Below, piece after piece: positions 4,660 to 19,476 of a stretch of DNA of 20,000 nt. The DNA is taken from positions 44,915 to 64,914 of IMG/VR virus record IMGVR_UViG_3300001605_000037, one strand, 5' to 3'. The position numbers and the translations under genes are program-made. The DNA is from an uncultured virus (IMG/VR IMGVR_UViG_3300001605_000037) (Duplodnaviria; Heunggongvirae; Uroviricota; Caudoviricetes). The notes beneath the pieces are model-generated. The model did not search any database. It saw nothing but the letters and a program-made list of their open reading frames with translations, and was not told the origin of the DNA. Position 1 is the first letter of the stretch. The number at the start of each line of letters is the position of its first letter.

Positions 4660-5022
4660 ATGGCGAGCGCAGAAGATCTGATCAAGCTGTACAACAGCAT
4701 TCAGGCAAAGCAGGTAGAAAAGGGCGTAAAGGGCGAGAAAGCTAACGCAATCCGCGATACCGTCCGGTCAATTGTTGCTGCATTCAAGGCAACTGGTGTG
4801 GTTGAACTGTCCCAGGCAACCCTTCGGAATTCTGTTAAGGAAATTCTTGCAGAGTCTGACCCAGAGGTTAAGCTGGACCAGGGCCATTTCAGTACCATCA
4901 TCAGTGCCATGTATGAAACCAAGAAAGACACGGCAACTGGTGCAGTTATTGTGCTGACGGCAGCAGAGAAACCCCCGAAGGTTCGGGTCAAGAAAGCCAA
5001 AGCAAAGTCAGCAGCAGAGTAG
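4660..5022 (+). CDS. Lys/Ala-rich basic protein, 120 aa, candidate abundant DNA-binding protein
   Basis: First gene after the promoter; helical core plus KPPKVRVKKAKAKSAAE tail. Function is inferred. Confidence 0.85.
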   Translation: MASAEDLIKLYNSIQAKQVEKGVKGEKANAIRDTVRSIVAAFKATGVVELSQATLRNSVKEILAESDPEVKLDQGHFSTIISAMYETKKDTATGAVIVLTAAEKPPKVRVKKAKAKSAAE

Positions 5023-5045
5023 ACACTCAACTAGAGTTGGGTGTT
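5022..5045 (+). other. Stem-loop immediately after the stop codon (transcript-end or stability element?)
   Basis: GACACTCAAC-TAGA-GTTGGGTGTT, 10-bp stem with G-U pairs; no long T-tract follows. Confidence 0.55.
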
Positions 5046-5049
5046 AACA

Positions 5050-5346
5050 ATGTTGTTGGTGGTGAGTAATTATCAAGACATTCGTGAGCAAGAGATTCCC
5101 TGGGCGAAGTATTCCCAGGTATTGCTTGTTCATTGTGTCGAGGGTGGTGTGTTTGAGCTTAAGCGAAAGTTGAAGACACAAGCACTAATCCACCACATCC
5201 CACTACACATCATGTTTATCATCCCACCAGTTGAGATTGTTCCCCCCGAACTTCTTTTGGGTTGTGGACTAACCATATCCAAGGAGGTGGAACTATATGG
5301 ACAGCAAATTAATCATACCATACCTTCAGATGCCAAAGAGAGCTAA
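5050..5346 (+). CDS. Hypothetical protein
   Basis: Track ORF 5041..5346; ATG 5050 lies just outside the hairpin; start uncertain. Confidence 0.55.
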   Translation: MLLVVSNYQDIREQEIPWAKYSQVLLVHCVEGGVFELKRKLKTQALIHHIPLHIMFIIPPVEIVPPELLLGCGLTISKEVELYGQQINHTIPSDAKES

Positions 5347-5575
5347 GTCTCCTGATATTGTGGACTGCTTTATTAAAGCCGGAGCTCCGCGAGGTGTGGT
5401 GAAGGTTGAGAACACAGGACGAGATTTTGATAGTGTCTACTCGGCACTATTTATGTACCTGAAGAGCCATCCTGAGTTGGAGGTGACTCTTGTCAGAGAA
5501 GACGGAGACATCGTTCTATACAGACGTGTTGTCGGAGAAGATAGCACTATTTGTGATGCAGGACTGGACAGTTGA
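5297..5575 (+). CDS. Small alpha/beta hypothetical protein, possibly DNA-binding, 92 aa
   Basis: Strong AAGGAGGTGG RBS; helix (FDSVYSALFMYLKSH) followed by a beta-hairpin. Confidence 0.75.
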   Translation: MDSKLIIPYLQMPKRAKSPDIVDCFIKAGAPRGVVKVENTGRDFDSVYSALFMYLKSHPELEVTLVREDGDIVLYRRVVGEDSTICDAGLDS

Positions 5576-5759
5576 TGAGGCTCATACTATCTCGTCTGTT
5601 GCTGAAAGGTTTCAGATCGATATCAGAAGTGCAAGGTATTACCTTATGAAGTATGTGGATAAAGGAATCCTTTGTCAGATCACATGGGAGGGTAATACCT
5701 ATTATGCATGGAGGTGTTGGAAACGTCCATTCAAAGCTTTAGGGGTTAGAGTACTATGA
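5490..5759 (+). CDS. Winged helix-turn-helix protein, 89 aa
   Basis: TISSVAERFQIDIRSARYYLMKYVDKGIL plus wing; GGAGGTGA before TTG start. Confidence 0.75.
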   Translation: MSEKTETSFYTDVLSEKIALFVMQDWTVDEAHTISSVAERFQIDIRSARYYLMKYVDKGILCQITWEGNTYYAWRCWKRPFKALGVRVL

Positions 5760-5926
5760 GAAGCACATGGGTTGGTGCGTGTGCAGCACTATGCGTGATA
5801 TTCATGTACGTTGCATGGTACGGGTTCTCTGGTGGGACAATACCCCCAATTGTGGTGGGTATAACCGGTACAGTATTGACGACCATTACAGTGATGGGTA
5901 CTATAGCCATCATAAATATGAAGTGA
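5756..5926 (+). CDS. Small two-TM membrane protein, 56 aa (MRSTWVGAC...)
   Basis: Translated by hand; two hydrophobic stretches; ATGA overlap; fills the gap exactly. Confidence 0.62.
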   Translation: MRSTWVGACAALCVIFMYVAWYGFSGGTIPPIVVGITGTVLTTITVMGTIAIINMK

Positions 5927-5929
5927 CCT

Positions 5930-6955
5930 ATGTCATTTGTTGAAACACTTGTGAAGAATGATTGGACCACTGCGAACGCAGAGGCGAAAGTAAAGCAGCT
6001 GACTGAAGCAATCCAGAAGAAGTATCCTAGTGCAACACCTGAGTTTGTGGAGAATACTCTCAAGTCAGCTATTAATACCCTGACGAAGAGTAAGATCGAG
6101 GTTATTCAGGGTGTGTGTGTTGGGTTTGGGAAGAAGCAGGACAGTAACAGTTTTGCAAAGATGAAGGCCAAGGAGGTCTGGGATCAGAACCCCAAGCTGG
6201 CTGCAGATGAGAAGTATGTTGTTGTGGATGCCGATGGGTCTGTTGTGTTTGAGACTGACGATAAGGGCGTCCAGAAGGTTGACAAGAATGGATCACCTAT
6301 TCCTGTCTGGGCTGACAACAGGGAGTTCATTGACCCTGATACCAAGAAGATGAAGAACTCTCGGTGGGGCAAGGCTCTCGGAGAGGTTATTCAGCGTGAT
6401 GCCTTCTTTATTGTGAATGGTAAGTTTGCACGTGCCTTTGGGAATTTCGATGTCCAGATGGGACATGAATACCAGATATTTGGTACTACCAGTAAGAAGG
6501 GGTATATTACTATCCCGAAGAATAGTCCTGGAGTTAAGCATGTAAGGATGCTTGAGGATGCTGAGTATTGGACACTGGTCAACAAGGTTGCTCAGGTTGA
6601 TGATTTAGCTGTTCAGCTTGGTGATGTTGCTACTATGGATAAGAACAAGCCCGTGGTGACCAAGGGGACAGTAACTACAGCTAGGGAAGCTGGGGCTTTC
6701 TATATGATTGTGGTGACCGATGATTCATACCCCGATGGGTATATGTGCTTCTCGGCTGACGAGGCTCTGAATGTTGAGTGCGAGGCACTCGGAGCTGGTA
6801 ATGAGATCATTCTGGTTGGAAAGACTGGCCAGTCAGTTGATAAGGTGACCAAGGAAGTCCGGAAGAACATTTCGGTGTATGGGTTTGCTTGCAATCCCGA
6901 GAGTGATAAGATTGCAGGGGCTGTTAGGTCTCTGGATGACATCCTATACTCATAA
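5930..6955 (+). CDS. Putative OB-fold single-stranded DNA-binding protein (viral RPA/SSB-like), 341 aa
   Basis: Beta-rich repeats with OB-like patterns (VVTKGTV...IVVTDDS...GNEIILVGK...NISVYG); upstream of a Sak4-like ATPase. ORF certain, function inferred. Confidence 0.6.
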   Translation: MSFVETLVKNDWTTANAEAKVKQLTEAIQKKYPSATPEFVENTLKSAINTLTKSKIEVIQGVCVGFGKKQDSNSFAKMKAKEVWDQNPKLAADEKYVVVDADGSVVFETDDKGVQKVDKNGSPIPVWADNREFIDPDTKKMKNSRWGKALGEVIQRDAFFIVNGKFARAFGNFDVQMGHEYQIFGTTSKKGYITIPKNSPGVKHVRMLEDAEYWTLVNKVAQVDDLAVQLGDVATMDKNKPVVTKGTVTTAREAGAFYMIVVTDDSYPDGYMCFSADEALNVECEALGAGNEIILVGKTGQSVDKVTKEVRKNISVYGFACNPESDKIAGAVRSLDDILYS

Positions 6956-6964
6956 TTATTTTTT

Positions 6965-7047
6965 GGGTGTGTGGCAGAGTGGCCAAATGCGTCCCCCTCA
7001 AAAGGGGATCCTGTAGAGGTGCATCGGTTCGAATCCGATCATGCCCA
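6965..7047 (+). tRNA. trnL: tRNA-Leu, anticodon CAA, archaeal type, no intron, no encoded CCA
   Basis: Acceptor GGGTGTG/CATGCCC + A73; D-arm GCAGAGTGGCCAAATGC; anticodon stem TCCCC/GGGGA, loop CTCAAAA (CAA 6999-7001); variable arm CCT-GTAG-AGG; T-arm ATCGG-TTCGAAT-CCGAT. Confidence 0.95.
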
Positions 7048-7226
7048 TTGCCCGAGAGGGATCTAGAGAATAACAGAATATCTAGCCAGTAGCTTACATT
7101 GCGATACGCGGTATTCCTCCGCATAAATAAATGGATGGGAGTCTACCCAAGTGAGCAAGACATTACGAGAGAACCAGGACAGTTCGACTCTGTCTGGTTC
7201 TATAAGACTTCCGATGGAGGTCTTGC
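7048..7226 (+). ncRNA. Candidate structured RNA or leader with a tRNA-like acceptor-T minihelix
   Basis: About 190-nt gap in otherwise gapless DNA. Hairpins: CCC-GAGA-GGG; CTAGA..TCTAG; GCGG..CCGC; TGGG..CCCA; AGAACCA-G-GACAG-TTCGACT-CTGTC-TGGTTCT-A (7170-7202); AAGACTTCC-GAT-GGAGGTCTT (7204-7224). Confidence 0.45.
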
Positions 7227-7236
7227 AGGTGAGATT

Positions 7237-8193
7237 ATGGGATTAGCTGACAAGGTGAAAAGTGTAGAGGTGGGTAGAGTTCCGAGAAACATACGCGATG
7301 TTTTTCGCCCATCAACAGAGTTAGAACATGTTTCTGGCTTAAAGATTGCTGTGTATTCAAGAGCCAAGGTGGGCAAGACACACTTAGCATTTACTTGCCC
7401 ATTGCCTATTTATGGGATTGACACAGAAGGGTCTTGGGGGTTGAATAGGAAGCAATTCCCTGAAGAGATTCAGAAGCAAGTGCATGTTAGACAAGTGTTG
7501 TATGATGCAAGCAAGAAAGACAATCTGGTGGATTTGGTTGCTGCATTAAATGCTGCAAGGGATGCTCTGGATGTGCTTACTGATTATATCACTTGCAATG
7601 ATTTAGTAGAGACCTTTTTGAGTAGTGTTAAGCAGGCTACAATGGCAGAGTTGATAGCTGGATTAACCACTTCGGAGTATACACCCAACCAGGACTTGAT
7701 TGAGTATGTGCTGGAGGAGATGGTGTTCTATGAGAGCATAACTGCAGGTGAAGTGTACACTTATGTGAAACCGTTCCCGAAGGGTACTATTGTGATTGAT
7801 TCAGGTACTGATATATGGGACTGGCTGGGCATATGGAAGGATGAACAGAACTTTTCAGATCCTGGACGACTTCAGTGGGGGCACGCAAACAAACGGTACA
7901 ATCAGTTTATTATGATGATGTTGCATTCAAAGTGGAATGTGCTGGGTAGCTTTAAAGCCGAAGCTATGGTAGATTCCAAGGGTGCCGACATGGGTACAGA
8001 TAAACCCAAGTGGCAGAAGAAGACTGATTATTGGTTTGATGTGATCATTGAGATGAAGCGGATTGGGAATGATCGCCAGGTGGTGTTCAGAGGAGATAGG
8101 TTTGGGGGCAACATCGCAACATTAGTTAATCCCACTTGGGATGACATTGTGAAACAGCTCGAGAGTGTTAAAAAGATTACGGTACAGAAATGA
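7237..8193 (+). CDS. RecA-fold ATPase of AAA_24/Sak4-like ssDNA-annealing type, 318 aa
   Basis: Walker A YSRAKVGKT, IDTEGS, Walker B TIVIDS, C-terminal KPKWQKKTDYWFDVII; start moved to ATG 7237 after AGGTGA RBS. Confidence 0.75.
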   Translation: MGLADKVKSVEVGRVPRNIRDVFRPSTELEHVSGLKIAVYSRAKVGKTHLAFTCPLPIYGIDTEGSWGLNRKQFPEEIQKQVHVRQVLYDASKKDNLVDLVAALNAARDALDVLTDYITCNDLVETFLSSVKQATMAELIAGLTTSEYTPNQDLIEYVLEEMVFYESITAGEVYTYVKPFPKGTIVIDSGTDIWDWLGIWKDEQNFSDPGRLQWGHANKRYNQFIMMMLHSKWNVLGSFKAEAMVDSKGADMGTDKPKWQKKTDYWFDVIIEMKRIGNDRQVVFRGDRFGGNIATLVNPTWDDIVKQLESVKKITVQK

Positions 8194-8489
8194 GCCCACT
8201 TCGATCTTTCCTTGGTAACACTGATGAGATACGAGTGTTGGATCTCATAATACCCATTGGGTTTACACAGAGAGTATATGTGAGTGATATCGAGAGGGTT
8301 ACTAAGATTCCCCATGCTAAGCTGTGCAAGATACTTGATCGGTTAGTTGGACCTGATGGGGTTGATCTTTCGGACATGGCATACATTGAGTTAGCTAAGA
8401 ATAATAAAGCTCTTGCATTGCATAATGTGATCATTACATTGCATATCGAAGAGTTGATTGAAGCACAGAGGAAGGCACTGGAGGGGTAG
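8190..8489 (+). CDS. Winged helix-turn-helix protein, 99 aa
   Basis: LGNTDEIRVLDLI...VSDIERVTKIPHAKLCKILDRLV pattern typical of archaeal wHTH proteins. Confidence 0.65.
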   Translation: MSPLRSFLGNTDEIRVLDLIIPIGFTQRVYVSDIERVTKIPHAKLCKILDRLVGPDGVDLSDMAYIELAKNNKALALHNVIITLHIEELIEAQRKALEG

Positions 8490-8490
8490 T

Positions 8491-9135
8491 GTGACAGTAA
8501 TTGATCTTCAGGTATTGCAGGATGAGCTTGCTGAACTTGGCATGCAAGGAAACCCTGGTGTTGAGATGAGAGGGTTGATTGCTCTTAGTCAGTTTGGAGA
8601 CTTTGTGAGGTACACAACACATGATCAGGTACTTAACCCAACTGTTCGACCCCACGAGAATCCATCCCTTGAGGCTCATGCTGCAGGTCATGTACTTGTC
8701 CAGATGATGACCTACATCATTAAGAGGAATATAAATCTGGATGAGGCCCTAATGCTGGGGTTACAAGATCTTCGCGGACGAACTGTGATGAAGAAACCAT
8801 CACTGGCAGGTACAGTAGCTAGTCCTGGTGAATGCTCTGGTGTTGCATTAGTTGTACGTGATTGGGCAGGACTAACTTGTTTGAATAGAGAGATGTGTGC
8901 TGATAAGATCCTTATTACACCACATGCATCAGTTAAGATACCTGTGCATATTTTTAGGGGTGTTATTACTGATTATGGTGGTATTGGATGTCACGCTGCG
9001 ATTGTTTGTCGAGAGCACCACATACCCTGCATAGTTGATACTGGAGATGGAACATCACGGATTAGGACCGGAATGTACGTTAGTATTACTGCTGCGGGAG
9101 AGGTTCTTGGTCCTACAGGAGAGAAATTGTTATGA
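8491..9135 (+). CDS. Fusion of a degenerate MazG-like all-alpha domain and a PEP-utilising swivelling phosphohistidine domain, 214 aa
   Basis: C-half GTVASPG...GVITDYGGIGCHAAIVCREHHIPCIV with the phosphoacceptor His (strong). N-half has MazG-like helix spacing, SQFGDF...EAHAAGHVLVQ...NINLDEAL (weaker). GTG start after GGAGG. Confidence 0.78.
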   Translation: MTVIDLQVLQDELAELGMQGNPGVEMRGLIALSQFGDFVRYTTHDQVLNPTVRPHENPSLEAHAAGHVLVQMMTYIIKRNINLDEALMLGLQDLRGRTVMKKPSLAGTVASPGECSGVALVVRDWAGLTCLNREMCADKILITPHASVKIPVHIFRGVITDYGGIGCHAAIVCREHHIPCIVDTGDGTSRIRTGMYVSITAAGEVLGPTGEKLL

Positions 9136-9935
9136 TAAACTACATGCCTATAACACCCGTTGGGTTGCTTGGAACGTTAGATACCATGGAGGTTCGGAAT
9201 GCTTTCATGCTGACCCATCTGTGGGAGATTAAGAGGTATAGGGAGTTCTACCAGACACATCAGTTTGATACTGTGATTCTGGATAATGACCTGTATGAGA
9301 AGCCCACAGCTGCTAGCTTTGATCACATGTTGAAGATTGCTAGCCAGATTGATGCTGAGAGAATCTTTGTGGTTGGACCTGAGTGTTTGACTGATGGGGT
9401 TAAGACTGGACAGATGACTCTGGACTTGTTAACACAATATGAGTCTGAAGGGTATCTGACTGACAATGTACAGATGATGTGTATATTGCACGAGAGACCC
9501 AATGAGATGCTTAGGCAGTGGAATCTGATTAAGCATAAAGAGGATGTTGCAGTAGGGATTAGTATTTTTAGCTATAGGCTTGGGTATGATAGAGCAAGCT
9601 TACACAAGTTTCTCAACCTGCCTAGGAATAGGTACACACACGCGTTTGGGTGGGACAACCTGTTAGAGGTTTATAATATGAGGGGATGTTTTGACTCTGT
9701 TGATTCTTCCCTGGCTGTTAGTGCTGCCTATAATGGTGTGGATCTGATGAAGGCCTGGCAGATTACTAGGGATGAAAAGAAGGATGGACGGGTTATTAAG
9801 GACAGATTGGATCTGACTTGGGCTGGTAAACCATCAGTGTCTTTGGAGTTAGCTACCTGTAAGAATATTCATTTTCTCAGACAGTTCTGCAGATGTGAGG
9901 GTCCTATCTATAAACAATCGGAGTTACCTGTATGA
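9132..9935 (+). CDS. TGT/DpdA-like TIM-barrel transglycosylase (putative base-exchange enzyme), 267 aa
   Basis: VILDND-x-YE, VVGPE, THAFG and DSVDSS motifs in the order of the TGT-fold D-S, P-D, H-x-x-G and D-x-x-D-S motifs; recognised by eye. Confidence 0.58.
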   Translation: MINYMPITPVGLLGTLDTMEVRNAFMLTHLWEIKRYREFYQTHQFDTVILDNDLYEKPTAASFDHMLKIASQIDAERIFVVGPECLTDGVKTGQMTLDLLTQYESEGYLTDNVQMMCILHERPNEMLRQWNLIKHKEDVAVGISIFSYRLGYDRASLHKFLNLPRNRYTHAFGWDNLLEVYNMRGCFDSVDSSLAVSAAYNGVDLMKAWQITRDEKKDGRVIKDRLDLTWAGKPSVSLELATCKNIHFLRQFCRCEGPIYKQSELPV

Positions 9936-10351
9936 CAGATCGGTTAGCTAGTGTGGTTGATTTGGCAACGTTTGGGACAGGAACTATGACTGTGCTTGAG
10001 CTGCAGATAGATTCTTGTAGGATTGCACAGGATCATGGGTTCTGGAACACATATGATGATATACAGTCTGCTTTAGATGCAGCATGTGATGGGATGTGTT
10101 GTGGACCAGATGCTAACTTGCTGAATGTGATTATTGATAGTAAGCTTATGCTTGCTGTTGGGGAGCTTTCGGAGGCTGAGGATGCCTTGAGGCATAACAA
10201 GCCCACCCCTGAGTTTGCTGAAGAACTTGCCGATGCGATCATTAGGATTGCTGATCTGGCTCATAAGTTGGGTATTAACCTCGAGGCTGCTATTAGAGCG
10301 AAGCAAGCATATAATGAGCAGAGACCGCATATGCATGGCAAGACCTTTTAG
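9932..10351 (+). CDS. mazG: MazG-like nucleoside triphosphate pyrophosphohydrolase, 139 aa
   Basis: KLMLAVGELSEA...EELADAIIRIADL...KQAYNEQRPHMHGK: canonical ExxE...ExxD signature of viral single-domain MazG. Confidence 0.9.
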   Translation: MTDRLASVVDLATFGTGTMTVLELQIDSCRIAQDHGFWNTYDDIQSALDAACDGMCCGPDANLLNVIIDSKLMLAVGELSEAEDALRHNKPTPEFAEELADAIIRIADLAHKLGINLEAAIRAKQAYNEQRPHMHGKTF

Positions 10352-10363
10352 GTTGGGGTTGCT

Positions 10364-10486
10364 ATGATTGGAGCTCTAATATGTCTAGCTGCTGGGTTTA
10401 CACTCTTTGCAGGTGTGTTGTCTAAGAGGAATGGAATCGTTGTGATTGGGGCCATATTGTTGGTTGTTGGGATTGTGATACCATGA
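10364..10486 (+). CDS. Small two-TM membrane protein, 40 aa (MIGALICLAAG...VVGIVIP)
   Basis: Translated by hand; almost wholly hydrophobic with a central SKRN loop; ATGA overlap. Confidence 0.62.
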   Translation: MIGALICLAAGFTLFAGVLSKRNGIVVIGAILLVVGIVIP

Positions 10487-10758
10487 AGTGTCCGAGATGC
10501 GAGGTGAACGGAAAGGTTACCTTTTTGGGTGTATGGTATGTAAGACAGGGAGAGTTTTATATGCTAATGACTCACTATGGATGTGAGGTGTGCAAGTGTG
10601 CATTCACTAGACCTGTCTCTGAGGATGCATATTATTACAAGAAGCAGGATGGATCTGTGATTGTGAGACCTTCATATGTGCCTTTGAAGGATGAGACTAG
10701 ATTGTTCTTTGTGGACTACGATCCTGGGTTTAGGTACAGGTTGGATCATGAAAGCTAG
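10483..10758 (+). CDS. Zn-ribbon protein, 91 aa
   Basis: CPRC...CEVC pairs. Confidence 0.75.
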   Translation: MKCPRCEVNGKVTFLGVWYVRQGEFYMLMTHYGCEVCKCAFTRPVSEDAYYYKKQDGSVIVRPSYVPLKDETRLFFVDYDPGFRYRLDHES

Positions 10759-10882
10759 ATGTAGGACTTGTGTGTATAATATACAGACAGGTGTGTGTAT
10801 TTATACCGGCCATCAGCTGAATTGGTTGAGAAATTTGGGGATTTGGTTGTTGGGGTGTGTATGTTATAAGGAGAGAACATGA
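10748..10882 (+). CDS. Small Cys-rich protein, 44 aa (MKARCRTC...)
   Basis: Track ORF trimmed to ATG 10748; ATGA overlap with polB. Confidence 0.6.
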   Translation: MKARCRTCVYNIQTGVCIYTGHQLNWLRNLGIWLLGCVCYKERT

Positions 10883-13188
10883 CGAATTATGTGTGGAGTG
10901 GATCGTTGTGGACCATGAAAGCTGGGAAACCCATCACGATCCTCTTTGGACGGAATGCAGATAATCCGACAGAAACTAAGGCCATTGGGTTCGGAAATCA
11001 ACGACCCTACTTTTATGCTCCAGCAGATGAAGTGCTTGCATTGAAGGTTAAGAAGTGCCTGTATGAAATTGTAGAGATTGAGGAAGGATTTGTAGATGCT
11101 TTTGGAAGGTCTGTGACAAGGTGTTATACTACGTTGCCATCTGATGTACCGAAAGTACGAGGCTTGTTTAGCTTTACTTGTGAGGCAGATATTGTTTATG
11201 ATATGAGGTATCTGATTGATCATAAGATCTATTATGGGTTTAATGAGAAGGGAGAGCCAGTAGATATTCCGATGGTGTCTCCGAGGGTCTGTGAGTTTGA
11301 TATTGAAGTTAATGCTCCACAGGACATCATGCCTCGGGCTGAGGAGCCTATCTGGCCTATCAATCAGATTCAGGTGATGGATTCCTATACGGAGCAAGTG
11401 AGAGTGTTCACCTTCAATTATGGAGATGACATTGTTGATGTGGACCAGATTAACTTTAAGACTGAAGAAGAGGTGATTCGAGCATTTGCTCAGTGGGTAT
11501 GGGATACTGATCCAGACTTGCTTGCTGGGTGGAATATTAAAGGGTTTGATGTGCCATACATTATTGCTCGGGCCGCTAGGTTGAGAGTTGACATATCGAG
11601 GTTGTCTAGGTGGCCACAGGTGTATCCAACGGATGCCAAGATTGTTGGAAGAGAGATATTTGATTCGTTCGTGTTCTATAAGGATTGGAGTAAGCCTAAG
11701 GGACAGCTTCCGAGTTATACATTAAAGTATGTGGTGCAGCATGAAACTGGATGGAGTTATATTAACCAGGGTGATAAGATTCGAAGCCTGGTGGACAGCA
11801 AGGATTGGAAAACGTTGGTTGATTACGGCAAGAATGATGTCCTGGCTCTTAGAAAGATTCATAAGGAAACTGGACTGATTGAGTTTTATGAAGCCTTAAG
11901 ACGAATGACCGGAATCAAACTCACCGATTGCTTGCTTAGGAGTAAGATCATTGAACTCTATCTGATGCATGAGATTGCTAGGATTGGGGAGGTGATGCCT
12001 CTACCCACCAAGAAGCATGATGCTCAGAAGGCTGAGTATGAGGGGGCCCTTGTCTTACCTCCTGAGTTTGGAGTGCATGAGGATGTGGGGACGACAGATC
12101 TGACAGCACTGTACCCGACTATTATTATTGCGTTTGATTTGAGTCCTGATAGGTTGAAGATGATCCCAAGGGTTATTGTTCAGCTTATGGAGGCTAGAGA
12201 TGTTATGAGGAGGCTCAAGTTGGAAGGAAAGGCTTCTAAGGCCATGCTGACTTCCGAACAGAGCTTGAAGTATGTGATTAATGCTTTTTATGGGTACTTG
12301 GCATTTAGTGGGGCACGATTGCACAAACCTGAATTGGCTGCATTTATCACCTTAAAAGGGAGAGAGATTAGTCATGAGCTTCATAAGAAGATTGTTGAGA
12401 TGGGTTACACGATTGTATATGGGGATACGGACTCTACATTTGTCAAGCCAGTTAAGACCGTCGAGGAAGGTAAAGCGATCGAGGCAGCGCTCAATTCTTA
12501 TCTGGCGGATTGGGCAGCAGAACTTAAGATTACTCCACACTTGGCGCCGACCCTTAAGTTGGAAAAGATATACCGGACACTCATGTTTAAAAAGAAATCG
12601 GGTGGTACGGAAGCTGCGAAGAAGAGATATGCTGGTGTTGTGGTCTGGAAAGACGGTAAGGATCTAACGGGTAAGCCTCCCGAGGTTGACTATACTGGCT
12701 TGGAGGTTAAGAGATCAGATACAGCCAATGTGTCTAGGGAGTTGATGAAACAGTTTTTTGAGATGGTGTTGATTCAGAAGAACCCACACCAGGCTGCAAG
12801 GTTGGTCAAAGATATATACTGGAAAGTTTATAATGGATCTATGTCTTTACAAGATGTAGCTATTCCGAAAGGGATTAGTAAGGGGAGGAGTCATATGGAA
12901 CCTGGTTCTTCCCCTTGGATACGGGGGAAGGAGAATGGACGAGTACTTTTGGGCATACATTTCAGATCGGATAAAAAGCCTAAGTTGCTGTATTGCGTTG
13001 GTCATCCAGATACCATTTGTATTGATGATGATATTGATGACTTGCGTGTACTATCTGTGTGTAAGATTGACTGGAAAACAATGGCGTTGAAGACTGTTGA
13101 GATGAAGATGAAGAGTCTGATTGAGTCTGTTGGATTGTCTTGGGAGACAGAAGTGCTTGGACAGCAAGGGTTGGATAAGTGGTTTTGA
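10879..13188 (+). CDS. polB: Family B DNA polymerase with 3'-5' exonuclease and C-terminal PIP box, 769 aa
   Basis: ExoI FDIE, ExoII GWNIKGFDVPY, ExoIII YGKND; motif A DLTALYPTII, B KYVINAFYG, C YGDTDS; KKRY; C-terminal QQGLDKWF. Confidence 0.97.
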   Translation: MTNYVWSGSLWTMKAGKPITILFGRNADNPTETKAIGFGNQRPYFYAPADEVLALKVKKCLYEIVEIEEGFVDAFGRSVTRCYTTLPSDVPKVRGLFSFTCEADIVYDMRYLIDHKIYYGFNEKGEPVDIPMVSPRVCEFDIEVNAPQDIMPRAEEPIWPINQIQVMDSYTEQVRVFTFNYGDDIVDVDQINFKTEEEVIRAFAQWVWDTDPDLLAGWNIKGFDVPYIIARAARLRVDISRLSRWPQVYPTDAKIVGREIFDSFVFYKDWSKPKGQLPSYTLKYVVQHETGWSYINQGDKIRSLVDSKDWKTLVDYGKNDVLALRKIHKETGLIEFYEALRRMTGIKLTDCLLRSKIIELYLMHEIARIGEVMPLPTKKHDAQKAEYEGALVLPPEFGVHEDVGTTDLTALYPTIIIAFDLSPDRLKMIPRVIVQLMEARDVMRRLKLEGKASKAMLTSEQSLKYVINAFYGYLAFSGARLHKPELAAFITLKGREISHELHKKIVEMGYTIVYGDTDSTFVKPVKTVEEGKAIEAALNSYLADWAAELKITPHLAPTLKLEKIYRTLMFKKKSGGTEAAKKRYAGVVVWKDGKDLTGKPPEVDYTGLEVKRSDTANVSRELMKQFFEMVLIQKNPHQAARLVKDIYWKVYNGSMSLQDVAIPKGISKGRSHMEPGSSPWIRGKENGRVLLGIHFRSDKKPKLLYCVGHPDTICIDDDIDDLRVLSVCKIDWKTMALKTVEMKMKSLIESVGLSWETEVLGQQGLDKWF

Positions 13189-13868
13189 TGGCTAAGAGTA
13201 GTAGTTATTGGTATCAAGAAGGTACTGGAAAGGATTTGCATGCAGTGGATAAACCATTGTTGATGTGCTTGATTGGTGGACATGTAACCTTCAATGACTT
13301 GAAGAGGTTGGTGATTAGGAAAGAGTGGTTGGATCTTACTCATGAACGCAATCCACTACCTTCTGAGCTGCTGGTGTTGAGGATGAGACAGCAGTATGCT
13401 GTAGATGCAGCAAAGCTTCTTAGAGGATGTGGATGGCTTAATAAGCTTGCAGTGGCTAAGTTAGCTGACTTCTTGGTGGTGCTGTTTAAGTCTGATGACA
13501 TGTACCATGAGCGAATGGGGTATTTGTTGTGGAGATGTACGATGATGGCTCCTAGATGGTTAGCTGCTGGGTTTGAGGAAAGGTGTGTATTGCTACAAGA
13601 GGAGAGAGTTAATTATTTTGTACACGAGAAGAGACAGGATAGGATTGATCACCTTATGTTGGGATGGAACTATCTGGAGCGAGAGTATGCTAATAATGAT
13701 TGGATAACACGATCAGTTGATTGGTTGGTTGAATTTCTGCACACCTATCCAACCAAGATTAACTACGATGAGGTGTCTAGGTTGGGCATGATGAGTTTCC
13801 ATCCCGAGTGGTGGTACCCCGTTGGTCGGGGACAGTTGTGGGATATGGTACATGGAGGATTAGGATGA
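13188..13868 (+). CDS. Hypothetical helical Trp-rich protein, 226 aa
   Basis: TGATG overlap with polB; long ORF; no recognised family. Confidence 0.82.
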   Translation: MAKSSSYWYQEGTGKDLHAVDKPLLMCLIGGHVTFNDLKRLVIRKEWLDLTHERNPLPSELLVLRMRQQYAVDAAKLLRGCGWLNKLAVAKLADFLVVLFKSDDMYHERMGYLLWRCTMMAPRWLAAGFEERCVLLQEERVNYFVHEKRQDRIDHLMLGWNYLEREYANNDWITRSVDWLVEFLHTYPTKINYDEVSRLGMMSFHPEWWYPVGRGQLWDMVHGGLG

Positions 13869-14305
13869 ATGTTAATGCTGAATTGAAAGAACGGATGATG
13901 CAGGTTGGTACACTGGTTGATACTGTTGAGATTGATAAGGAGTTCTGGGACCTCAACCAACCCTACTGGCAGAATACCAACAATCATACCTTACTGATGT
14001 TGCGCAATACCTACCATAGGGTTGAGACAGATGAGGAGATTCACAAGGTTCTTGGACCACTTGTTGATAAGATGGCTTGGGTGTTTGTTAGCTATCCTGA
14101 GTTGAGAGCTAGGATTTCATGGCTAACATGGTTCTTTCAACTCTATGCGTTTGATAAGCAGTTTGCGAAGGAGAAGTATACCCATGAAGTGTGGACTGAT
14201 CCTCGGAAGTGGGGATTAGCTACAGATACTGTTAACCCCCTAGAGGTTGTAGTGGAGGTGAATGATGACAGTGCTAGTGGATTGGCAACTCAAGGAACGC
14301 ATTGA
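13865..14305 (+). CDS. Hypothetical helical Trp-rich protein, 146 aa
   Basis: GGAGG then ATG 13865 (ATGA overlap). Confidence 0.8.
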   Translation: MNVNAELKERMMQVGTLVDTVEIDKEFWDLNQPYWQNTNNHTLLMLRNTYHRVETDEEIHKVLGPLVDKMAWVFVSYPELRARISWLTWFFQLYAFDKQFAKEKYTHEVWTDPRKWGLATDTVNPLEVVVEVNDDSASGLATQGTH

Positions 14306-14834
14306 TGCTGGTGTGATTGGAGTATGTCCGTTGAGTAAGAGTGCCATTCAGGCTAACAGTATAGATGTTAGGTTGAATAATACATTTGCTGCTTACGATG
14401 CTCAGTATGCCAGTGTTGAGATTGATCCATATGATGAGGATAGTACACGGTTAGGACTGGCTGCCATGACTGCCGATAGTATATTGCTGACTAAGGGAGC
14501 ATTCTTGTTAGCTGAGACTATGGAGACCATAAGGCTGCCCGACAATGTATGTGCAACCATAGAGGGTAAGAGTAGTCTTGCACGGCTTGGTATTACTGTC
14601 CATCAGACCGGTGGGTGGATTGATTGTGGGTTTGAAGGGACCATAACACTTGAGATGACCAATGAGAATGTTAGACCTGTTGTACTGTATGCTGGAATGC
14701 CTATAGCACAGATTGTGTTTTATGAGACAGATCATGCTTTGATGCCATATGGGGTTAGGGGATCTGCTAAGTATCATAAACAGAAGGGTGCTACTGGATC
14801 TAGGTTTTACAAGAACGATAGGTGTGTTATATGA
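14262..14834 (+). CDS. dcd: dCTP deaminase
   Basis: QANSIDVRL, EGKSSLARLG, GGWIDCGFEGTITLE, KYHKQKG; GGAGGTGA RBS. Confidence 0.95.
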   Translation: MMTVLVDWQLKERIDAGVIGVCPLSKSAIQANSIDVRLNNTFAAYDAQYASVEIDPYDEDSTRLGLAAMTADSILLTKGAFLLAETMETIRLPDNVCATIEGKSSLARLGITVHQTGGWIDCGFEGTITLEMTNENVRPVVLYAGMPIAQIVFYETDHALMPYGVRGSAKYHKQKGATGSRFYKNDRCVI

Positions 14835-14968
14835 GTTATAAGCCACAAACTAAATGGATTGTTAATGTGAAGACACCTGAGGGGAAGCTTCGGACAGAAA
14901 TCTTTAAGTTTCAACCGAAGATGGGTCAGAAGTTGGCTGATGGATCGATTGTGATTAAGGTGAGTTAG
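14831..14968 (+). CDS. Small basic beta-rich protein, 45 aa (MSYKPQTKWIV...)
   Basis: Translated by hand; fills the dcd-thyA gap exactly. Confidence 0.62.
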   Translation: MSYKPQTKWIVNVKTPEGKLRTEIFKFQPKMGQKLADGSIVIKVS

Positions 14969-15691
14969 ATGATACCGATTAAGGCGTATAGTATTGGGGA
15001 TGCTCATTGTCAGGTTGTAACGAAGCTTCTTAAGGATGGGAAGGTACAACTAACACAGGATGGTGAATTGACAGTTGAGCATCTGGATATGGTGATTGAG
15101 ATTAAGAATCCTCTCTCGGAGCCAATGGTACATCCTGGGAGTAACTTTCAAGCTGGAAAGCTAAGAGAGTATGTTGATGGACTGCTGAATGGGACAAGTG
15201 GAACCTTTACATATACATACCATGAGAGGTTGTTTGGATGGAGTCCCTGGGAAGATGGGTATGATGCGATTAATCAAATTGATGGTATTGTTAGGTACCT
15301 TGCTGATGAGACAAATAGAGATAGCCGCCGTGCTGTTGCTATTACTTGGTATCCTTGGAAGGATCTTGGATATTCTGGACCATGCTTGCAATATGTGCAG
15401 TTTATTGTTCGTGATGGACAGCTGTTCATGACAGTTCTGTTCCGGAGTAACGATGGCTTATCAGCAGCTGGAGCGAATATGTTTGCCTTGGTGGCATTGC
15501 AGGCTGCGGTTGCTGCTAAGTTGTACTTGAAGGTTGGAGGATACTGTCATCACTCAGTAAGTATGCATGCATATGTGATCAGAGATCAGAAAGAGGTTGA
15601 GGATATGTTGATGAAGCAGTTTGGTTGGACACGTGACACAACTCGAGCTGGCTTGGTGCGTGACAGACCTGATATTCCTTGGAAGGTGTGA
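14969..15691 (+). CDS. thyA: Thymidylate synthase, archaeal ThyA type (or related dUMP hydroxymethylase)
   Basis: FTYTYHERL, SRRAVAITW, catalytic PCLQ, FRSND, ANM, SMHAY. Confidence 0.9.
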   Translation: MIPIKAYSIGDAHCQVVTKLLKDGKVQLTQDGELTVEHLDMVIEIKNPLSEPMVHPGSNFQAGKLREYVDGLLNGTSGTFTYTYHERLFGWSPWEDGYDAINQIDGIVRYLADETNRDSRRAVAITWYPWKDLGYSGPCLQYVQFIVRDGQLFMTVLFRSNDGLSAAGANMFALVALQAAVAAKLYLKVGGYCHHSVSMHAYVIRDQKEVEDMLMKQFGWTRDTTRAGLVRDRPDIPWKV

Positions 15692-15846
15692 TGGTGGAGC
15701 ATATTCCAGATATTGCACCACCTCCAAAATCTTGGAAGCTAACTCGAGTGAAAAGGTTGATGGTGAAGAAGAAGTTGGGGTCTGCATTTGTGCCCTATAG
15801 GTTAGTTGAGGATGCATGGAATGTAACGGGGATTGATGATGCATGA
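15691..15846 (+). CDS. Small basic hypothetical protein, 51 aa (MVEHIPDIAPPP...)
   Basis: Translated by hand; TGATG and ATGA overlaps. Confidence 0.6.
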   Translation: MVEHIPDIAPPPKSWKLTRVKRLMVKKKLGSAFVPYRLVEDAWNVTGIDDA

Positions 15847-17387
15847 TTGATGAGATGGATTTGTTATATAAAGCTCGGTACCCTATCATCTGGTTACAGA
15901 CAGCAGAGGAAGTACGAGCACTCAAGATGATTGAGGAACTTGCAGAGAGACGAACAGCTAAGGTACTTACTTGGACAGTAACGAAGGGATTGGTTGGACC
16001 TGCCGGAGGTATATCGAACACACAGGCCCTGGATGTTGCTTTGTCTGAAGTGATTAGTTACAATGATAGGGAAAATAGATTTGTGGTGTTGATTGATGTG
16101 CATAATCATCTCACTGATAATGTGGTGATTAGGTATCTGAAGGAGCTAGCTATTAAGCTTCCTGTGAAGACCCGTACGTCTATATTCGTGGTGTCACCCT
16201 CAGACAAGATTCCTAAAGATCTCCAGAAGGTCATAACTATCTTGGAGATACCATTGCCTGATAGGGATATTTTGAAGGGGATTGTCGAGAAGACATTGAC
16301 AGAGTGGATTGATCTGAGCAAGACTGACTCTGGAGCCAAACAACTTATTGGTGCTATTGAAGAGCCTGTGCGAGCAAAGATGGATGCATTAGTGAATGCT
16401 GGGTTGGGGTTGACAGTAGATGAGTTTGCTAACATATCTACTAAGACCTTGATTGGTAAGAACATCGATCCTTCTGTGATTCTGGGTGAAAAGAAACACA
16501 TCATCAGAAGTACGGGCATGCTTGAGTATATTGATAATGATACAGGTATGGCTGATGTGGGTGGATTGGATGCATTTAAGCAGTGGCTCACATTTGCTGT
16601 TAAGACATTGGATCCTAAGGCTGCCAGCTATGGGTTGAAGCCGCTGCGAGGTGTTATGTTGGTAGGTCCACCTGGAACTGGGAAGACCTTGTTAGCTAAG
16701 CTTATTGCAACACAGTTTGGAACACCTCTCCTGTTGCTTGATATGGCTAACATTGCTACTAAGTTCTATGGAGAGTCTTCGAGCAATATTAAGCAGGCTT
16801 TGAATTTAGCTGATGCGTTAGCTCCCGATGTGTTTTTGTGGGATGAGGTGGAGAAGATGTTTGCTACAGGTGGTGCTGGTGAGGGTCATGAGGAAACTAT
16901 GAGGACCTTGTCAGTGTTGCTTACACATATAGAGGAGAGTAAGGCTCCTGTGTTTAGGGTGGCTACCTGTAATAATCCAATGAATCTGAAGCCTGAGATG
17001 CTTCAGAGGTTTCCGAAGATATTCTTTGTGGACCTTCCTAATATGATTGAGAGGCTGTCGATTTTGGACATCCACTTACGAGCTAGTAAGCAAGATCCTG
17101 CTAGGTTTGATATGAATAGGTTAGCGAATATTACTGATGGGTATGTTGGAAGAGAGATTCGTAACCTCATCCAGGATGCTATGATAAGGTCGTTCTATGA
17201 GGATAGACCGTTGGAGACAGATGATATTGTGGCAGTTGTTAACCTGACCACCCCACTGTCCAAGCAAGATAAGATATCCAAGGAGATTACTGAGGTGCGT
17301 GAATGGGCAGGTATGAATGCTTGCAATGCTTCGACAGCCACTATTGGTGATCGGGGTGGTAGTACTTCGAGGGATGTGATTACATGA
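15843..17387 (+). CDS. Ycf46-like AAA+ ATPase (degenerate N-terminal and active C-terminal AAA domain), 514 aa
   Basis: N-terminal KARYPIIWLQTAEE.R; EKKHIIRSTGMLEY; DVGGLD; Walker A GPPGTGKT; Walker B LWDEVEK; IFFVDLP; VREWA. Confidence 0.88.
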   Translation: MIDEMDLLYKARYPIIWLQTAEEVRALKMIEELAERRTAKVLTWTVTKGLVGPAGGISNTQALDVALSEVISYNDRENRFVVLIDVHNHLTDNVVIRYLKELAIKLPVKTRTSIFVVSPSDKIPKDLQKVITILEIPLPDRDILKGIVEKTLTEWIDLSKTDSGAKQLIGAIEEPVRAKMDALVNAGLGLTVDEFANISTKTLIGKNIDPSVILGEKKHIIRSTGMLEYIDNDTGMADVGGLDAFKQWLTFAVKTLDPKAASYGLKPLRGVMLVGPPGTGKTLLAKLIATQFGTPLLLLDMANIATKFYGESSSNIKQALNLADALAPDVFLWDEVEKMFATGGAGEGHEETMRTLSVLLTHIEESKAPVFRVATCNNPMNLKPEMLQRFPKIFFVDLPNMIERLSILDIHLRASKQDPARFDMNRLANITDGYVGREIRNLIQDAMIRSFYEDRPLETDDIVAVVNLTTPLSKQDKISKEITEVREWAGMNACNASTATIGDRGGSTSRDVIT

Positions 17388-17518
17388 ATGTTTGGGAGTT
17401 TAGACAGCTCTATGAGTCTGCTATGCCATTGGAAGGATTGGTGGGTGGATTCCTGCTAGGTTGTGGAGTGTTGATAGTGTATGTGTGGTGGAAGGAGAGA
17501 TCGTTGAATGATCATTGA
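17384..17518 (+). CDS. Small single-TM protein, 44 aa (MNVWEF...GFLLGCGVLIVYVWWKER)
   Basis: Translated by hand; ATGA overlap; hydrophobic helix followed by WWKER. Confidence 0.58.
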   Translation: MNVWEFRQLYESAMPLEGLVGGFLLGCGVLIVYVWWKERSLNDH

Positions 17519-17690
17519 TGTGTATGAGAATCCAGAGGTGGCTGTGATGTTAGGAACACCTTCAGATGATGTGATTATCACTGATGAGGGTATCATTGCA
17601 ACCCATGGTGAGATTGATGAACAGATGAAAGCTGAGTTTGAGAGACTCGGTGTTAGGATTGAAGAGGAGACCACAGTACTCTGTGGGTAA
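17508..17690 (+). CDS. Small acidic hypothetical protein, 60 aa
   Basis: AAGGAG upstream; sits inside the AAA module. Confidence 0.7.
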   Translation: MIIDVYENPEVAVMLGTPSDDVIITDEGIIATHGEIDEQMKAEFERLGVRIEEETTVLCG

Positions 17691-17696
17691 AGTATT

Positions 17697-18059
17697 ATGT
17701 CACAAATGAGTGTGTTAAAAACAACTGTTGATCTGACAGATAAGAATGTACTGCAGACTGCCCTGACAGCTATGGCGACTATGTTTCCAGGCATGACCAC
17801 TACTGTTCGTGGGAATGATATACTGGTTCATTGGGTAGGTATCCAACAGTATAGGAAGCAGAATTTAACTTTCAAGTGGACAGGAAAGTTATTCGAGCCC
17901 ATTGGGGATTCGTATAATACGGGTGGTAACCTCGATAGGGTCATGAATGCTGTACCGGTGCATTATAGACGAGCTGTTGCTAAGTCTGTCATGGGGAAGT
18001 ATGGATCTTGCATTACATCTGAGATTAAGGGTGGCATTCGGCTTAGGGTACACAGGTGA
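17697..18059 (+). CDS. DUF1257 (Ycf35)-like protein, 120 aa
   Basis: MSQMSVLKT...DKNVLQTAL N-terminus, FKWTGKLFEPIGD, Y-x-R-x-V helix, G-x-IRLRV C-terminus; context next to a Ycf46-like ATPase. Confidence 0.75.
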   Translation: MSQMSVLKTTVDLTDKNVLQTALTAMATMFPGMTTTVRGNDILVHWVGIQQYRKQNLTFKWTGKLFEPIGDSYNTGGNLDRVMNAVPVHYRRAVAKSVMGKYGSCITSEIKGGIRLRVHR

Positions 18060-18064
18060 GGTAG

Positions 18065-18262
18065 ATGGAAGATACCATTGATGTTATGGATGATGGAAGG
18101 ATTATCGTTGACTTCCATGGGTATGAAGGTACTACATGCACTGATCATCTGAGGGATGTTGTACAGAGGTTTGGTGCGCTGGGTGTGAAGGCTCAGATAG
18201 AGGAGACTAGGAAGAAGAATTCTGTCCTAGCTGCACCACAGGGAATGTTAGTTAGGAAGTGA
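18065..18262 (+). CDS. DUF2997-like protein, 65 aa
   Basis: I-x-V-x-x-DG-x-I-x-V...GYEG-x-x-C...LG pattern; follows the DUF1257-like gene. Confidence 0.72.
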   Translation: MEDTIDVMDDGRIIVDFHGYEGTTCTDHLRDVVQRFGALGVKAQIEETRKKNSVLAAPQGMLVRK

Positions 18263-18265
18263 GGT

Positions 18266-18574
18266 ATGCCTGATGAGGTTTTTATACTTCATACTACGCA
18301 GGGACCACTAAGGTGTCGGGTCAGTGGTGGGGATATTGTAAGTCTTGAGAGCGTCGAACAGATACATGTTGGGGATAGGGTGCAAAGTGCTGATCTAATG
18401 TCAGCCACTGGGTCTGCCTGGCCAATCGTTGTACCAGAGTATCGACCTGATGTACCATTCTGGGCTAGGACATATGAGTTGCCATCGGATGATCCCAAAG
18501 CCTGCCAGGAGTTGAAGGGTAGGGTCGAGGAGAAAGAGACTGATAGGCGAGATGTGATTTTCGATGATGCATGA
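18266..18574 (+). CDS. Hypothetical protein, 102 aa
   Basis: ORF in tight operon-like spacing; ends RRDVIFDDA. Confidence 0.72.
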   Translation: MPDEVFILHTTQGPLRCRVSGGDIVSLESVEQIHVGDRVQSADLMSATGSAWPIVVPEYRPDVPFWARTYELPSDDPKACQELKGRVEEKETDRRDVIFDDA

Positions 18575-18812
18575 TGGTACTCAACTTGAGATTGGGGAAT
18601 GTGCAATTCGAACTGACACTGGATTCATAGTCTGCACTGTTGACTCATATTCGATAACACGCGACCATGTTGAGATGATTGGTAGTGAGTATCGGATTGG
18701 TGCTATTGCTACAGGGGATGTGAGGATAACGTTTGAGGGACGAGTGCTTTCTAACCTGAGTGACGACCCATTACCTAACAACCCATCATATCTCCTGTGG
18801 GTAGTATGGTGA
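18564..18812 (+). CDS. Hypothetical beta-rich protein, 82 aa
   Basis: Overlaps previous stop; codon usage like neighbours. Confidence 0.68.
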   Translation: MMHDGTQLEIGECAIRTDTGFIVCTVDSYSITRDHVEMIGSEYRIGAIATGDVRITFEGRVLSNLSDDPLPNNPSYLLWVVW

Positions 18813-18815
18813 TCT

Positions 18816-19169
18816 TTGAGGAGTAAACCTATGATGCTTGATAATAGTGACGAATATCTGGATCATCTGGAATTTCGGACACATACCATTGATCTATTCA
18901 AATGTGATACGATTAAGTATGCAATATTCTCAGGGTCCAGGCATGAACGCAATTCGGTACCGTATTCTGGATTGGTGATTGAATCAGATGTACGACCAAT
19001 GATATTAGGTAGAATGCACAGATTGGTGGTTCTTGAGATGACTGAAGAGGAGTTTGCTCAACGGCGGTCCCACTACCTAGAAGTAGTTGTTCCAATGCAA
19101 CATTCATGCCACGTGAGTAAGATACCTCCTAGATCTGGATCGTATAGACAAGTGGTCTTTGAGGAGTAG
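18816..19169 (+). CDS. Hypothetical protein, about 115 aa
   Basis: TTG 18816 after GGTGA, or ATG 18831 after GAGGAG; ends YRQVVFEE. Confidence 0.68.
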   Translation: MRSKPMMLDNSDEYLDHLEFRTHTIDLFKCDTIKYAIFSGSRHERNSVPYSGLVIESDVRPMILGRMHRLVVLEMTEEEFAQRRSHYLEVVVPMQHSCHVSKIPPRSGSYRQVVFEE

Positions 19170-19171
19170 CT

Positions 19172-19474
19172 ATGACAGATGATATTGATGCATTTATTGG
19201 AGAGTTGGTGGATGGACCCATGACAGGTCTCCCCCATGTGTCTATTGCATTTCCTGGACAGTCGCCAATACCTACCACCGTGGTTAGGATTACCCGTCGT
19301 AGAGAGGTTGGTGTTGGTATGCTGTATCGGATTGACTGTGTTATTACTGATGACCAACAGACCCGGGGGTATAGTAGAGCACTTGATGCTGGACTGACAC
19401 CTGCTACTTGGGAGGATATTGCTGAGGGGCGAACTGATCCAACCGCAACAAGAACAACAATACTTGAGGATTGA
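19172..19474 (+). CDS. Hypothetical protein, 100 aa
   Basis: GAGGAG RBS; ends TRTTILED. Confidence 0.72.
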   Translation: MTDDIDAFIGELVDGPMTGLPHVSIAFPGQSPIPTTVVRITRRREVGVGMLYRIDCVITDDQQTRGYSRALDAGLTPATWEDIAEGRTDPTATRTTILED

Positions 19475-19476
19475 CT

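Follow-up and report, generated by a model that had tools for sequence, protein, structure and literature searches.

A DpdA3-like barrel protein and a DpdL homologue suggest phiST-type 7-deazaguanine DNA modification in an uncultured tailed virus

Does an uncultured tailed virus exchange guanine in its own DNA for a 7-deazaguanine base and, if so, with which enzymes? The question is raised by the window analysed here, a stretch of 20,000 nucleotides that forms the final 20 kb of the 64,914-bp virus record IMGVR_UViG_3300001605_000037, in which three coupled genes, encoding a fusion protein with a phosphohistidine domain, a minimal barrel protein and a MazG-type enzyme, lie upstream of a gene for a family B DNA polymerase (PolB). 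A preliminary description, made from these letters alone, saw in them a candidate new base-modification pathway of an archaeal virus. Our analysis indicates that the virus very probably does put a 7-deazaguanine into its DNA, as supported by the DpdA3-type barrel, a DpdL homologue and the QueD, QueE and FolE2 genes, and that the window probably represents the insertion end of a DNA-modification system of the phiST type. The pathway as such is not new, because the same gene set (a FolE-type cyclohydrolase, QueD, QueE, DpdL and a DpdA3-type transglycosylase, with no QueC) was published for phage phiST, in which deoxyguanosine is replaced by dDG (2'-deoxy-7-deazaguanine), as well as for its relatives, in Cui et al. 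2023 (PMC10516641).

The genes of the proposed system and those coupled to its transglycosylase gene are listed here. Loci from related viruses carry the labels L002-L007, and coordinates prefixed C1 are positions on the 64.9-kb genome outside the window.

4192-4560, + strand: DpdL homologue, 122 aa, a QueD paralogue and proposed 7-carboxy-7-deazaguanine decarboxylase (motif, pocket residues, BLASTP)
8491-9135, + strand: fusion protein, 214 aa, with a putative MazG-fold N-terminus and a PEP-utilizers mobile (phosphohistidine swivel) C-terminus
9132-9935, + strand: DpdA3-like guanine transglycosylase, 267 aa, a predicted minimal TGT-fold barrel
9932-10351, + strand: predicted MazG-type nucleoside triphosphate pyrophosphohydrolase, 139 aa, accessory (PHROG profiles)
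C1:5214-5633: QueD (Pfam 7.7e-25, CxxxHGH)
C1:5638-6261: QueE-like radical SAM protein (phrog_2076 4e-35; five best NCBIfam matches all QueE models)
C1:6261-7043: FolE2 (Pfam 7.3e-35; NF010200 102 bits)

The genes of the preliminary description are present at their places in the window, all on the + strand, and the coupling of the fusion, barrel and MazG genes is visible as ATGA overlaps at 9132 and 9932. The fusion gene starts with GTG at 8491, two bases past the stop of the upstream open reading frame (ORF; stop at 8487-8489), with GGAGGGG ahead of it. Because the barrel protein has 34 homologue clusters in metagenomes at E <= 1e-39, several of them on 63-75 kb contigs, and because the synteny around it is kept in six other viral contigs, we regard these genes as genuine and not as chance ORFs.

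The 267-aa protein has no match in Pfam, PHROGs or NCBIfam, and PDB sequence searches with the single sequence or with a 31-sequence profile returned noise alone. A profile of 131 sequences does reach TGT, 39 of its 40 PDB sequence matches being Z. mobilis TGT (best E 0.008). An AF2 model, computed with the homologue alignment as input, is a (beta/alpha)8 barrel with pLDDT 94 and pTM 0.91, and in a Foldseek comparison with the PDB all of the top 50 matches were TGT (50/50, E ~1e-6). An unfiltered VIA-align scan of 48,161 chains, independent of Foldseek, was led by Cap10 (Z 15.7), DpdA, which inserts preQ0 into DNA (14.6), the archaeosine enzyme ArcTGT (14.5) and bacterial TGT (14.1), with 222-231 residues aligned at root-mean-square deviations of 3.3-3.7 A; the next barrels scored 12.6 and below. 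Based on the model and on the DpdA3 profile match described below, we confidently regard the protein as a predicted TGT/DpdA-superfamily barrel, as the preliminary description had suspected. The chain stops about 60 residues beyond the barrel. We also considered the barrel as a PEP-utilizers_C-type partner of the swivel domain encoded next to it, and rejected this, as no PEP-utilizer barrel was among the top 50 structural matches and the TGT family leads them.

To which branch of the superfamily does the barrel belong? A profile search of 1.84 billion representatives retrieved 290 proteins at E <= 0.001, mostly of 230-280 aa. When phmmer was run on the retrieved proteins, phiST DpdA3 (CGPG_00065) recognised 121 of them, the DpdA3 of a Campylobacter phage 37, and the DpdA4 of HVTV-1 none. 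With hhalign, 46 near relatives of the window protein aligned to 110 DpdA3 proteins, including those of phiST and the Campylobacter phage, at probability 100 and E 5.9e-46 over 237 columns; the near-relative profile matched the phiST protein alone at E 1.6e-5, and the phiST protein ranked third in BFVD (E 4.7e-8). Identity between the window transglycosylase and phiST DpdA3 is about 19-25%. Sequence comparison thus places the putative window transglycosylase with DpdA3, on a deep branch of its own that carries a fixed change from Asp to Glu. DpdA4, the type published for archaeal viruses, was excluded, given an hhalign probability of 0.7 and no phmmer match for HVTV-1 gp69 (DpdA4), and no match to PF20314 (DUF6610) in the genome at E <= 10. 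Some distant relatives on the DpdA3 side do match DUF6610, P0075 with 30.8 bits.

Three residues of the barrel protein, D51, G173 and D191, do not vary in any of 131 sequences, and P9, Y36, N52, E56, P83, R154, H170 and E179 are near-invariant across them. In the alignment with the 39 Z. mobilis TGT chains, D191 falls on the Asp of their MFDCV/MFDSV motif. We take the MFDCV Asp (Asp280 of Z. mobilis TGT, after the seventh strand) to be the catalytic nucleophile of that enzyme, and Asp102 and Asp156 to be its second catalytic or base-binding acidic residues. The hidden Markov model alignment to TGT spans profile positions 95-233 only, so D51 and E84 are not aligned to Asp102 and Asp156. In the proposed reaction Asp191 would be the nucleophile that attacks C1', with Asp51 and Glu84 serving in catalysis and base binding. 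The variant motifs DND and PE, pointed out earlier at places where D-S and P-D would be expected, are real (D51-N52-D53 and P83-E84); 'DN' is common to the whole family and 'PE' is particular to the window's clade.

The base that such an enzyme would insert is suggested by the gene at 4192-4560, which had been called QueD-like. DpdL was described as a QueD paralogue in which CxxxHGH has become LxxxHRHxF, and was proposed to decarboxylate 7-carboxy-7-deazaguanine (CDG) to 7-deazaguanine (PMC10516641). The window protein carries L-S-H-M-H-R-H-T-F, fitting LxxxHRHxF, a motif that it shares with all 6 aligned DpdL-type proteins, and the genome's own QueD, which lies outside the window, retains CxxxHGH. 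The 12 pocket residues listed for DpdL in the supplement of PMC10516641 (G15, H17, L33, H37, R38, H39, F41, R54, E57, S83, E85 and E104, phiST numbering) are all identical in the window protein. It is 31% identical to phiST CGPG_00067 (BLASTP, E 1e-11) and 37% identical to the product of a gene beside QueE in Acidovorax phage ACP17 (tblastn, E 3e-15), matches phrog_17812 (E 7.5e-16) and has no match to Pfam PTPS. By motif, pocket and sequence similarity it is a DpdL homologue, with a predicted decarboxylase activity.

Genes for the synthesis of CDG are found elsewhere in the same genome. QueD, QueE and FolE2 adjoin each other at C1:5214-7043, about 16 kb from the transglycosylase gene, and the order QueD, QueE, FolE2, ERCC4 nuclease is syntenic in three relatives. 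We counted these genes in five barrel-bearing viral records, namely the window's own and four relatives, of which three (the own record included) are at least 90% complete. QueD, QueE, FolE2 and DpdL each occur in four of the five records, and none of the four is missing from any of the three near-complete ones; the absences fall in fragments estimated at 68% and 76% completeness; the co-occurrence with queD and queE that had been proposed as a check is therefore present. QueC was found in none of the five, the window's genome included, in a search that was positive for 14 of 14 control genomes, and without QueC preQ0 cannot be made. Directly after FolE2, overlapping its end by 4 bases, lies a 151-aa ORF (C1:7040-7495, L008) with no family match and no homologue in three related viruses.

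Taken together, FolE2, QueD and QueE would convert GTP to CDG, the DpdL homologue would remove the CDG carboxyl to give 7-deazaguanine, and the DpdA3-like barrel would swap guanine for 7-deazaguanine. By analogy with phiST, the most likely product is DNA with dDG. Such DNA would be shielded from host nucleases that read guanine N7. Homology, fold, conserved residues, gene content and co-occurrence are what the analysis shows; the reactions themselves, which base is made, how much of the guanine is replaced and an action of the exchange on DNA, as proposed in the literature, are inferred.

Several results weigh against this interpretation. A tblastn search of 50,697 phage genomes with the 267-aa protein gave nothing at E <= 1, and Pfam TGT (PF01702) has no match to it at E <= 0.01 and matches one of 31 relatives, at E 0.03. 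No Cys and no C-terminal His is invariant in either the 31 or the 131 sequences, and the TGT zinc site is absent since there is no invariant Cys. In a FastTree phylogeny a branch with an SH-like support of 100 sets 26 near relatives, with P0056, apart from the remaining 106 rows, among them both reference DpdA3 proteins; this tree is midpoint-rooted without an outgroup and does not separate a clade that is sister to DpdA3 from one nested in it. All 26 near relatives have Glu at position 84, where 100 of 105 DpdA3 proteins have Asp, and given this change and the separate branch the substrate could differ. The scores of QueE, QueD and FolE2 fall under the NCBIfam equivalog cut-offs. Finally, tests of DpdL and DpdA3 in E. 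coli showed no activity (PMC10516641), so that for the reference system, too, decarboxylation and insertion are still proposals.

[quoted passage not shown] The decarboxylase activity of DpdL is a prediction for which expression tests failed, DpdA3 may insert CDG, and dCDG has been reported in a Sulfolobus virus (PMC10516641); the clade-specific Glu84 could reflect such a substrate, and the 151-aa gene after FolE2 occurs in this genome only. We consider this reading distinctly unlikely, as the proposed DpdL pocket is kept at 12 of 12 residues, DpdL travels with the barrel in four of the five records, and phiST, with the same gene set, has dDG (PMC10516641).

A third reading, in which DNA is not modified at all and the barrel, QueD, QueE and FolE2 serve host tRNA modification or pterin/folate metabolism during infection, appears very improbable. 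In its favour, tRNA is the classical substrate of TGT enzymes, pterin pathways are supplied by FolE2 and QueD-type enzymes as well, and this virus has a gene for tRNA-Leu(CAA). However, a genome without QueC cannot make preQ0 or preQ1, the known substrates for tRNA, the barrel gene sits amid replication genes, its nearest characterised relatives are phage DNA-modification proteins, and DpdL is known only from deazaguanine DNA-modification clusters (PMC10516641).

Comparison with characterised systems shows what this virus shares with phiST and where it departs from it. The phiST genes are FolE, QueD, QueE, the MazG/dUTPase-like CGPG_00068, DpdL CGPG_00067 and DpdA3 CGPG_00065 (Cui et al. 2023, PMC10516641), in the order QueD, QueE, FolE, MazG-like, DpdL, unknown, DpdA3, polymerase region. 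Both viruses have the same inventory and lack QueC; the DpdL proteins are homologous with motif and pocket residues kept, the transglycosylases are homologous over their full length, a MazG-type gene is nearby, and a DNA polymerase gene lies just downstream. The window virus differs in that its transglycosylase stands on a separate branch at the low identity given above, with Glu for Asp at 84; its cyclohydrolase is FolE2-type; its synthesis genes are far from the transglycosylase gene, in contrast to the single cluster of phiST; its host is probably archaeal; and it has the phosphohistidine fusion in addition. The MazG-type proteins of the two viruses are not detectably related.

The Campylobacter phages of the CP220 group have a DpdA3 and complete replacement by dADG (PMC10516641). 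Their transglycosylase is of the same family, directly upstream of the DNA polymerase and beside a nucleotide-metabolism gene, but they have a QueC-like gene and no DpdL. HVTV-1 gp69, the DpdA4/DUF6610 protein of a haloarchaeal virus, places dPreQ1 at about 30% of G (PMC10516641). It too is a DNA transglycosylase related to TGT, from a tailed virus of archaea that also encodes FolE, QueD and QueE, but HVTV-1 has QueC and QueF and no DpdL, and the two transglycosylases are without detectable similarity. Bacterial DpdA (PDB 7ui4) and the TGTs (Z. mobilis, ArcTGT) share the barrel fold (Z 14.1-14.6) and the aligned nucleophile Asp with the window protein, which is about 120-150 residues shorter, is about 9-12% identical to them, and has no conserved zinc Cys and no Pfam TGT match.

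The transglycosylase gene is embedded in a block of replication genes and other neighbours, as follows.

6964-7048, + strand: tRNA-Leu (anticodon CAA), the sole tRNA found in the viral genome
7099-8193: Sak4-like/AAA_24 ATPase, upstream of the fusion gene
10483-10758, + strand: small Cys-rich protein, 91 aa, between the transglycosylase and PolB
10879-13188, + strand: family B DNA polymerase with 3'-5' exonuclease domain (Pfam, PHROG)
13179-13868 and 13808-14305, + strand: two conserved proteins without family assignment, 229 aa and 165 aa
14262-14834, + strand: dcd, dCTP deaminase (TIGR02274, Pfam DCD)
14969-15691, + strand: thyA, methanogen-type thymidylate synthase (TIGR03283)
15843-17387, + strand: Cdc48/PAN-like AAA+ ATPase, 514 aa (phrog_8638 E 3.5e-95; conserved in L005)

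The + strand holds the window genes from about 2 kb on, and positive GC skew is strong and uniform over this block (0.18-0.37 in most 1-kb windows of positions 2001-20000). The record's opening 30 bases are repeated 55 bases short of its end, and its classification is that of a 100% complete genome with direct terminal repeats.

What, then, is the role of the two genes coupled to the transglycosylase gene? The 139-aa MazG protein matches phrog_3301 'pyrophosphatase' (E 1.1e-17) and phrog_5658 (2.5e-14) and reaches 18.8 bits for Pfam MazG-like, below the cut-off of 27. The earlier recognition of a phosphohistidine domain in the fusion protein is borne out: its C-terminus scores 47.2 bits for PF00391 (cut-off 23.1; E 1.7e-12), and what it matches in NCBIfam and the PDB are swivel domains, those of PEP synthase, enzyme I and PPDK. 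By sequence it has a single homologue, encoded in L002 (42% identity, PF00391 64.9 bits), and the GGIGCHAAI stretch with its His, which we take to be the phospho-acceptor, is identical in the two. The N-terminal 105 residues have no sequence match (Pfam at E <= 10). In the ESM Atlas model, residues 1-105 resemble MazG-family folds in 9 of 10 rows (TM 0.70-0.73), which we treat as a lead, not proof, for a MazG fold; the domain has altered acidic motifs. AF2 with a two-sequence alignment gave pLDDT 36.8 for the fusion, and a word-index search for it returned itself alone. The ESM Atlas also holds a 93-member cluster of proteins of about 216 aa with PF00391, mostly archaeal and most often from Nanobdellota, which seems to share the MazG-fold and swivel arrangement; if it does, the fusion would seem to be a cellular family and not viral alone.

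The three coupled genes do not form a conserved module: the 139-aa MazG is present in one of the five related records and a PF00391 fusion in two. The barrel is constant between the Sak4-like ATPase and PolB, while the slot upstream of it varies. In L004 and L006 this slot encodes a DUF3310 protein that matches PHROG 'nucleotide kinase' families (E 2.2e-22). In L003 (9598-10008), L005 (3210-3479) and L007 (2629-3288) it encodes helical proteins that are homologous to one another (E 1e-12 and 1e-9). No relation was found by hhalign among the three slot families, nor between the N-terminus of the fusion and the downstream MazG, and Pfam at E <= 10 gave nothing for the slot proteins or the other unknowns. 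MazG and the fusion are lineage-specific accessories that most likely adjust nucleotide pools, for example by dGTP hydrolysis or phosphoryl transfer between nucleotides.

These neighbours are also the basis for a pre-replicative route, offered in the preliminary description beside post-replicative insertion, in which base exchange by the barrel would take place on a free guanine deoxynucleotide and PolB would incorporate the modified nucleotide. MazG would supply dGMP and deplete dGTP, and a kinase-like partner (the fusion here, the DUF3310 kinase in relatives) would rebuild the triphosphate. The logic is that of the PurZ/MazZ/DatZ Z-genome phages, which make their modified nucleotide before replication with a MazG-type (deoxy)nucleoside triphosphate pyrophosphohydrolase, a base-specific enzyme and a viral polymerase; the base-specific enzyme here would be the transglycosylase, and no PurZ or DatZ homologue turned up in a general Pfam scan of the genome. 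We regard this route as unlikely, with a real though small chance. The gene just upstream of the barrel looks like nucleotide metabolism in several lineages (the fusion in the window and L002, DUF3310 in L004 and L006), the gene order in Campylobacter phage CC_R7 is DpdA3, thymidylate kinase, DNA polymerase, the MazG/dUTPase-like gene adjoins DpdL in phiST, PolB lies at most 3 kb downstream of the transglycosylase in five loci (the window, L002, L003, L005 and L007), and the barrel is without the zinc subdomain. Replacement is moreover complete in DpdA3 phages, free ADG nucleoside occurs in infected cells, and DpdA3 did not modify DNA in E. coli (PMC10516641). Set against this, the accessories are poorly conserved, the DUF3310 gene being in none of the five long records in addition to the low counts for MazG and the fusion, and few of the canonical acidic residues are left in the fusion's MazG-fold domain. 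To our knowledge, no transglycosylase of the TGT/DpdA superfamily acts on free nucleotides. Post-replicative insertion has been proposed for all DpdA types in PMC10516641.

A complex prediction for barrel and fusion gave no answer on an interaction (score 0.00, with controls not run). In the boldest form of the pre-replicative route, which we consider improbable, DpdA3-type minimal barrels, this clade included, would be nucleotide transglycosylases of a pre-replicative pathway, with the fusion as a new (pyro)phosphoryl carrier and MazG clearing dGTP. The fusion would then take phosphates from nucleoside triphosphates at its degenerate MazG site and pass them via the swivel His to the modified deoxynucleotide made by the barrel. 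This would explain both the 100% replacement in DpdA3 phages and the failure of DpdA3 in E. coli DNA assays. Insertion of 7-deazaguanine into DNA by a phiST-type system is the reading that we prefer.

PolB itself matches Pfam DNA_pol_B (E 3.4e-31), DNA_pol_B_exo1 (1.4e-15) and phrog_262 (7.2e-88). The three coupled genes are upstream of it, as had been described, but not directly adjacent, since the 91-aa Cys-rich ORF intervenes. This small protein has homologues at the same place in L002, L003 and L004 (48-53% identity) and no family match. After PolB the order of two unknowns, dcd and thyA is as noted before. L002, L003 and L005 have the 229-aa and 165-aa pair in the same order, again with PolB on one side and dcd on the other; the pair matches nothing in Pfam, PHROGs or NCBIfam, and the window's unknown proteins, this pair included, have no counterpart in the phiST, ACP17 or Campylobacter loci; the two could be polymerase accessories. 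The dcd product scores 166.8 bits for TIGR02274 (cut-off 92.8; Pfam DCD E 1.5e-41) and that of thyA 177.5 bits for TIGR03283 (cut-off 174.55), and these are ordinary genes for the supply of dTTP. Among the related loci, L003 encodes a Ro60/TROVE protein with a vWA domain (6999-8522) beside the Sak4-like ATPase, and L007 encodes homologues of the anti-defence proteins Gad1 (9529-10428, E 2.7e-37) and Tad3 (11176-11682, E 1.4e-27) downstream of PolB.

The host of the virus is, we judge, quite likely an archaeon. The best full-length PolB matches in cultured viruses are haloarchaeal tailed viruses (24-26% identity), the sole named cellular homologues of thyA are from three Methanococcus species (35-40% identity), and the nuclease beside FolE2 is Hef-like. 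Counting against an archaeal host, or neutral, are the matches of the terminase to Streptomyces and Xanthomonas phages (about 21% identity), the Gad1 and Tad3 homologues in one relative, and a barrel-family member binned with a Fervidobacterium metagenome-assembled genome. The putative capsid protein has no match.

Although modification systems of this kind have been known since 2023, three features of the present one are new. The first is the deep, unannotated branch of DpdA3 with a fixed Asp-to-Glu change. The second is that probable archaeal viruses, for which DpdA4 alone was reported, combine a DpdA3-type barrel with DpdL and FolE2; in the published view archaeal viruses use DpdA4, and the supplement rows examined show haloviruses with DpdA4 only (PMC10516641). 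The third is the putative MazG-fold/phosphohistidine fusion, an architecture previously undescribed; a literature search found no paper tying PEP-utilizers or swivel domains to MazG or to DNA modification, none on such a fusion, and no later work on DpdL or DpdA3.

The phiST-type pathway, with DpdA3 and DpdL and no QueC, would thus extend beyond bacteriophages to uncultured 45-75-kb tailed viruses, probably of archaea. Viromes with deazaguanine-modified DNA are probably under-counted, because Pfam and BLAST miss this branch of transglycosylases. The recurring link of minimal barrels with nucleotide kinases or pyrophosphatases and a viral DNA polymerase bears on whether guanine is replaced before or after replication.

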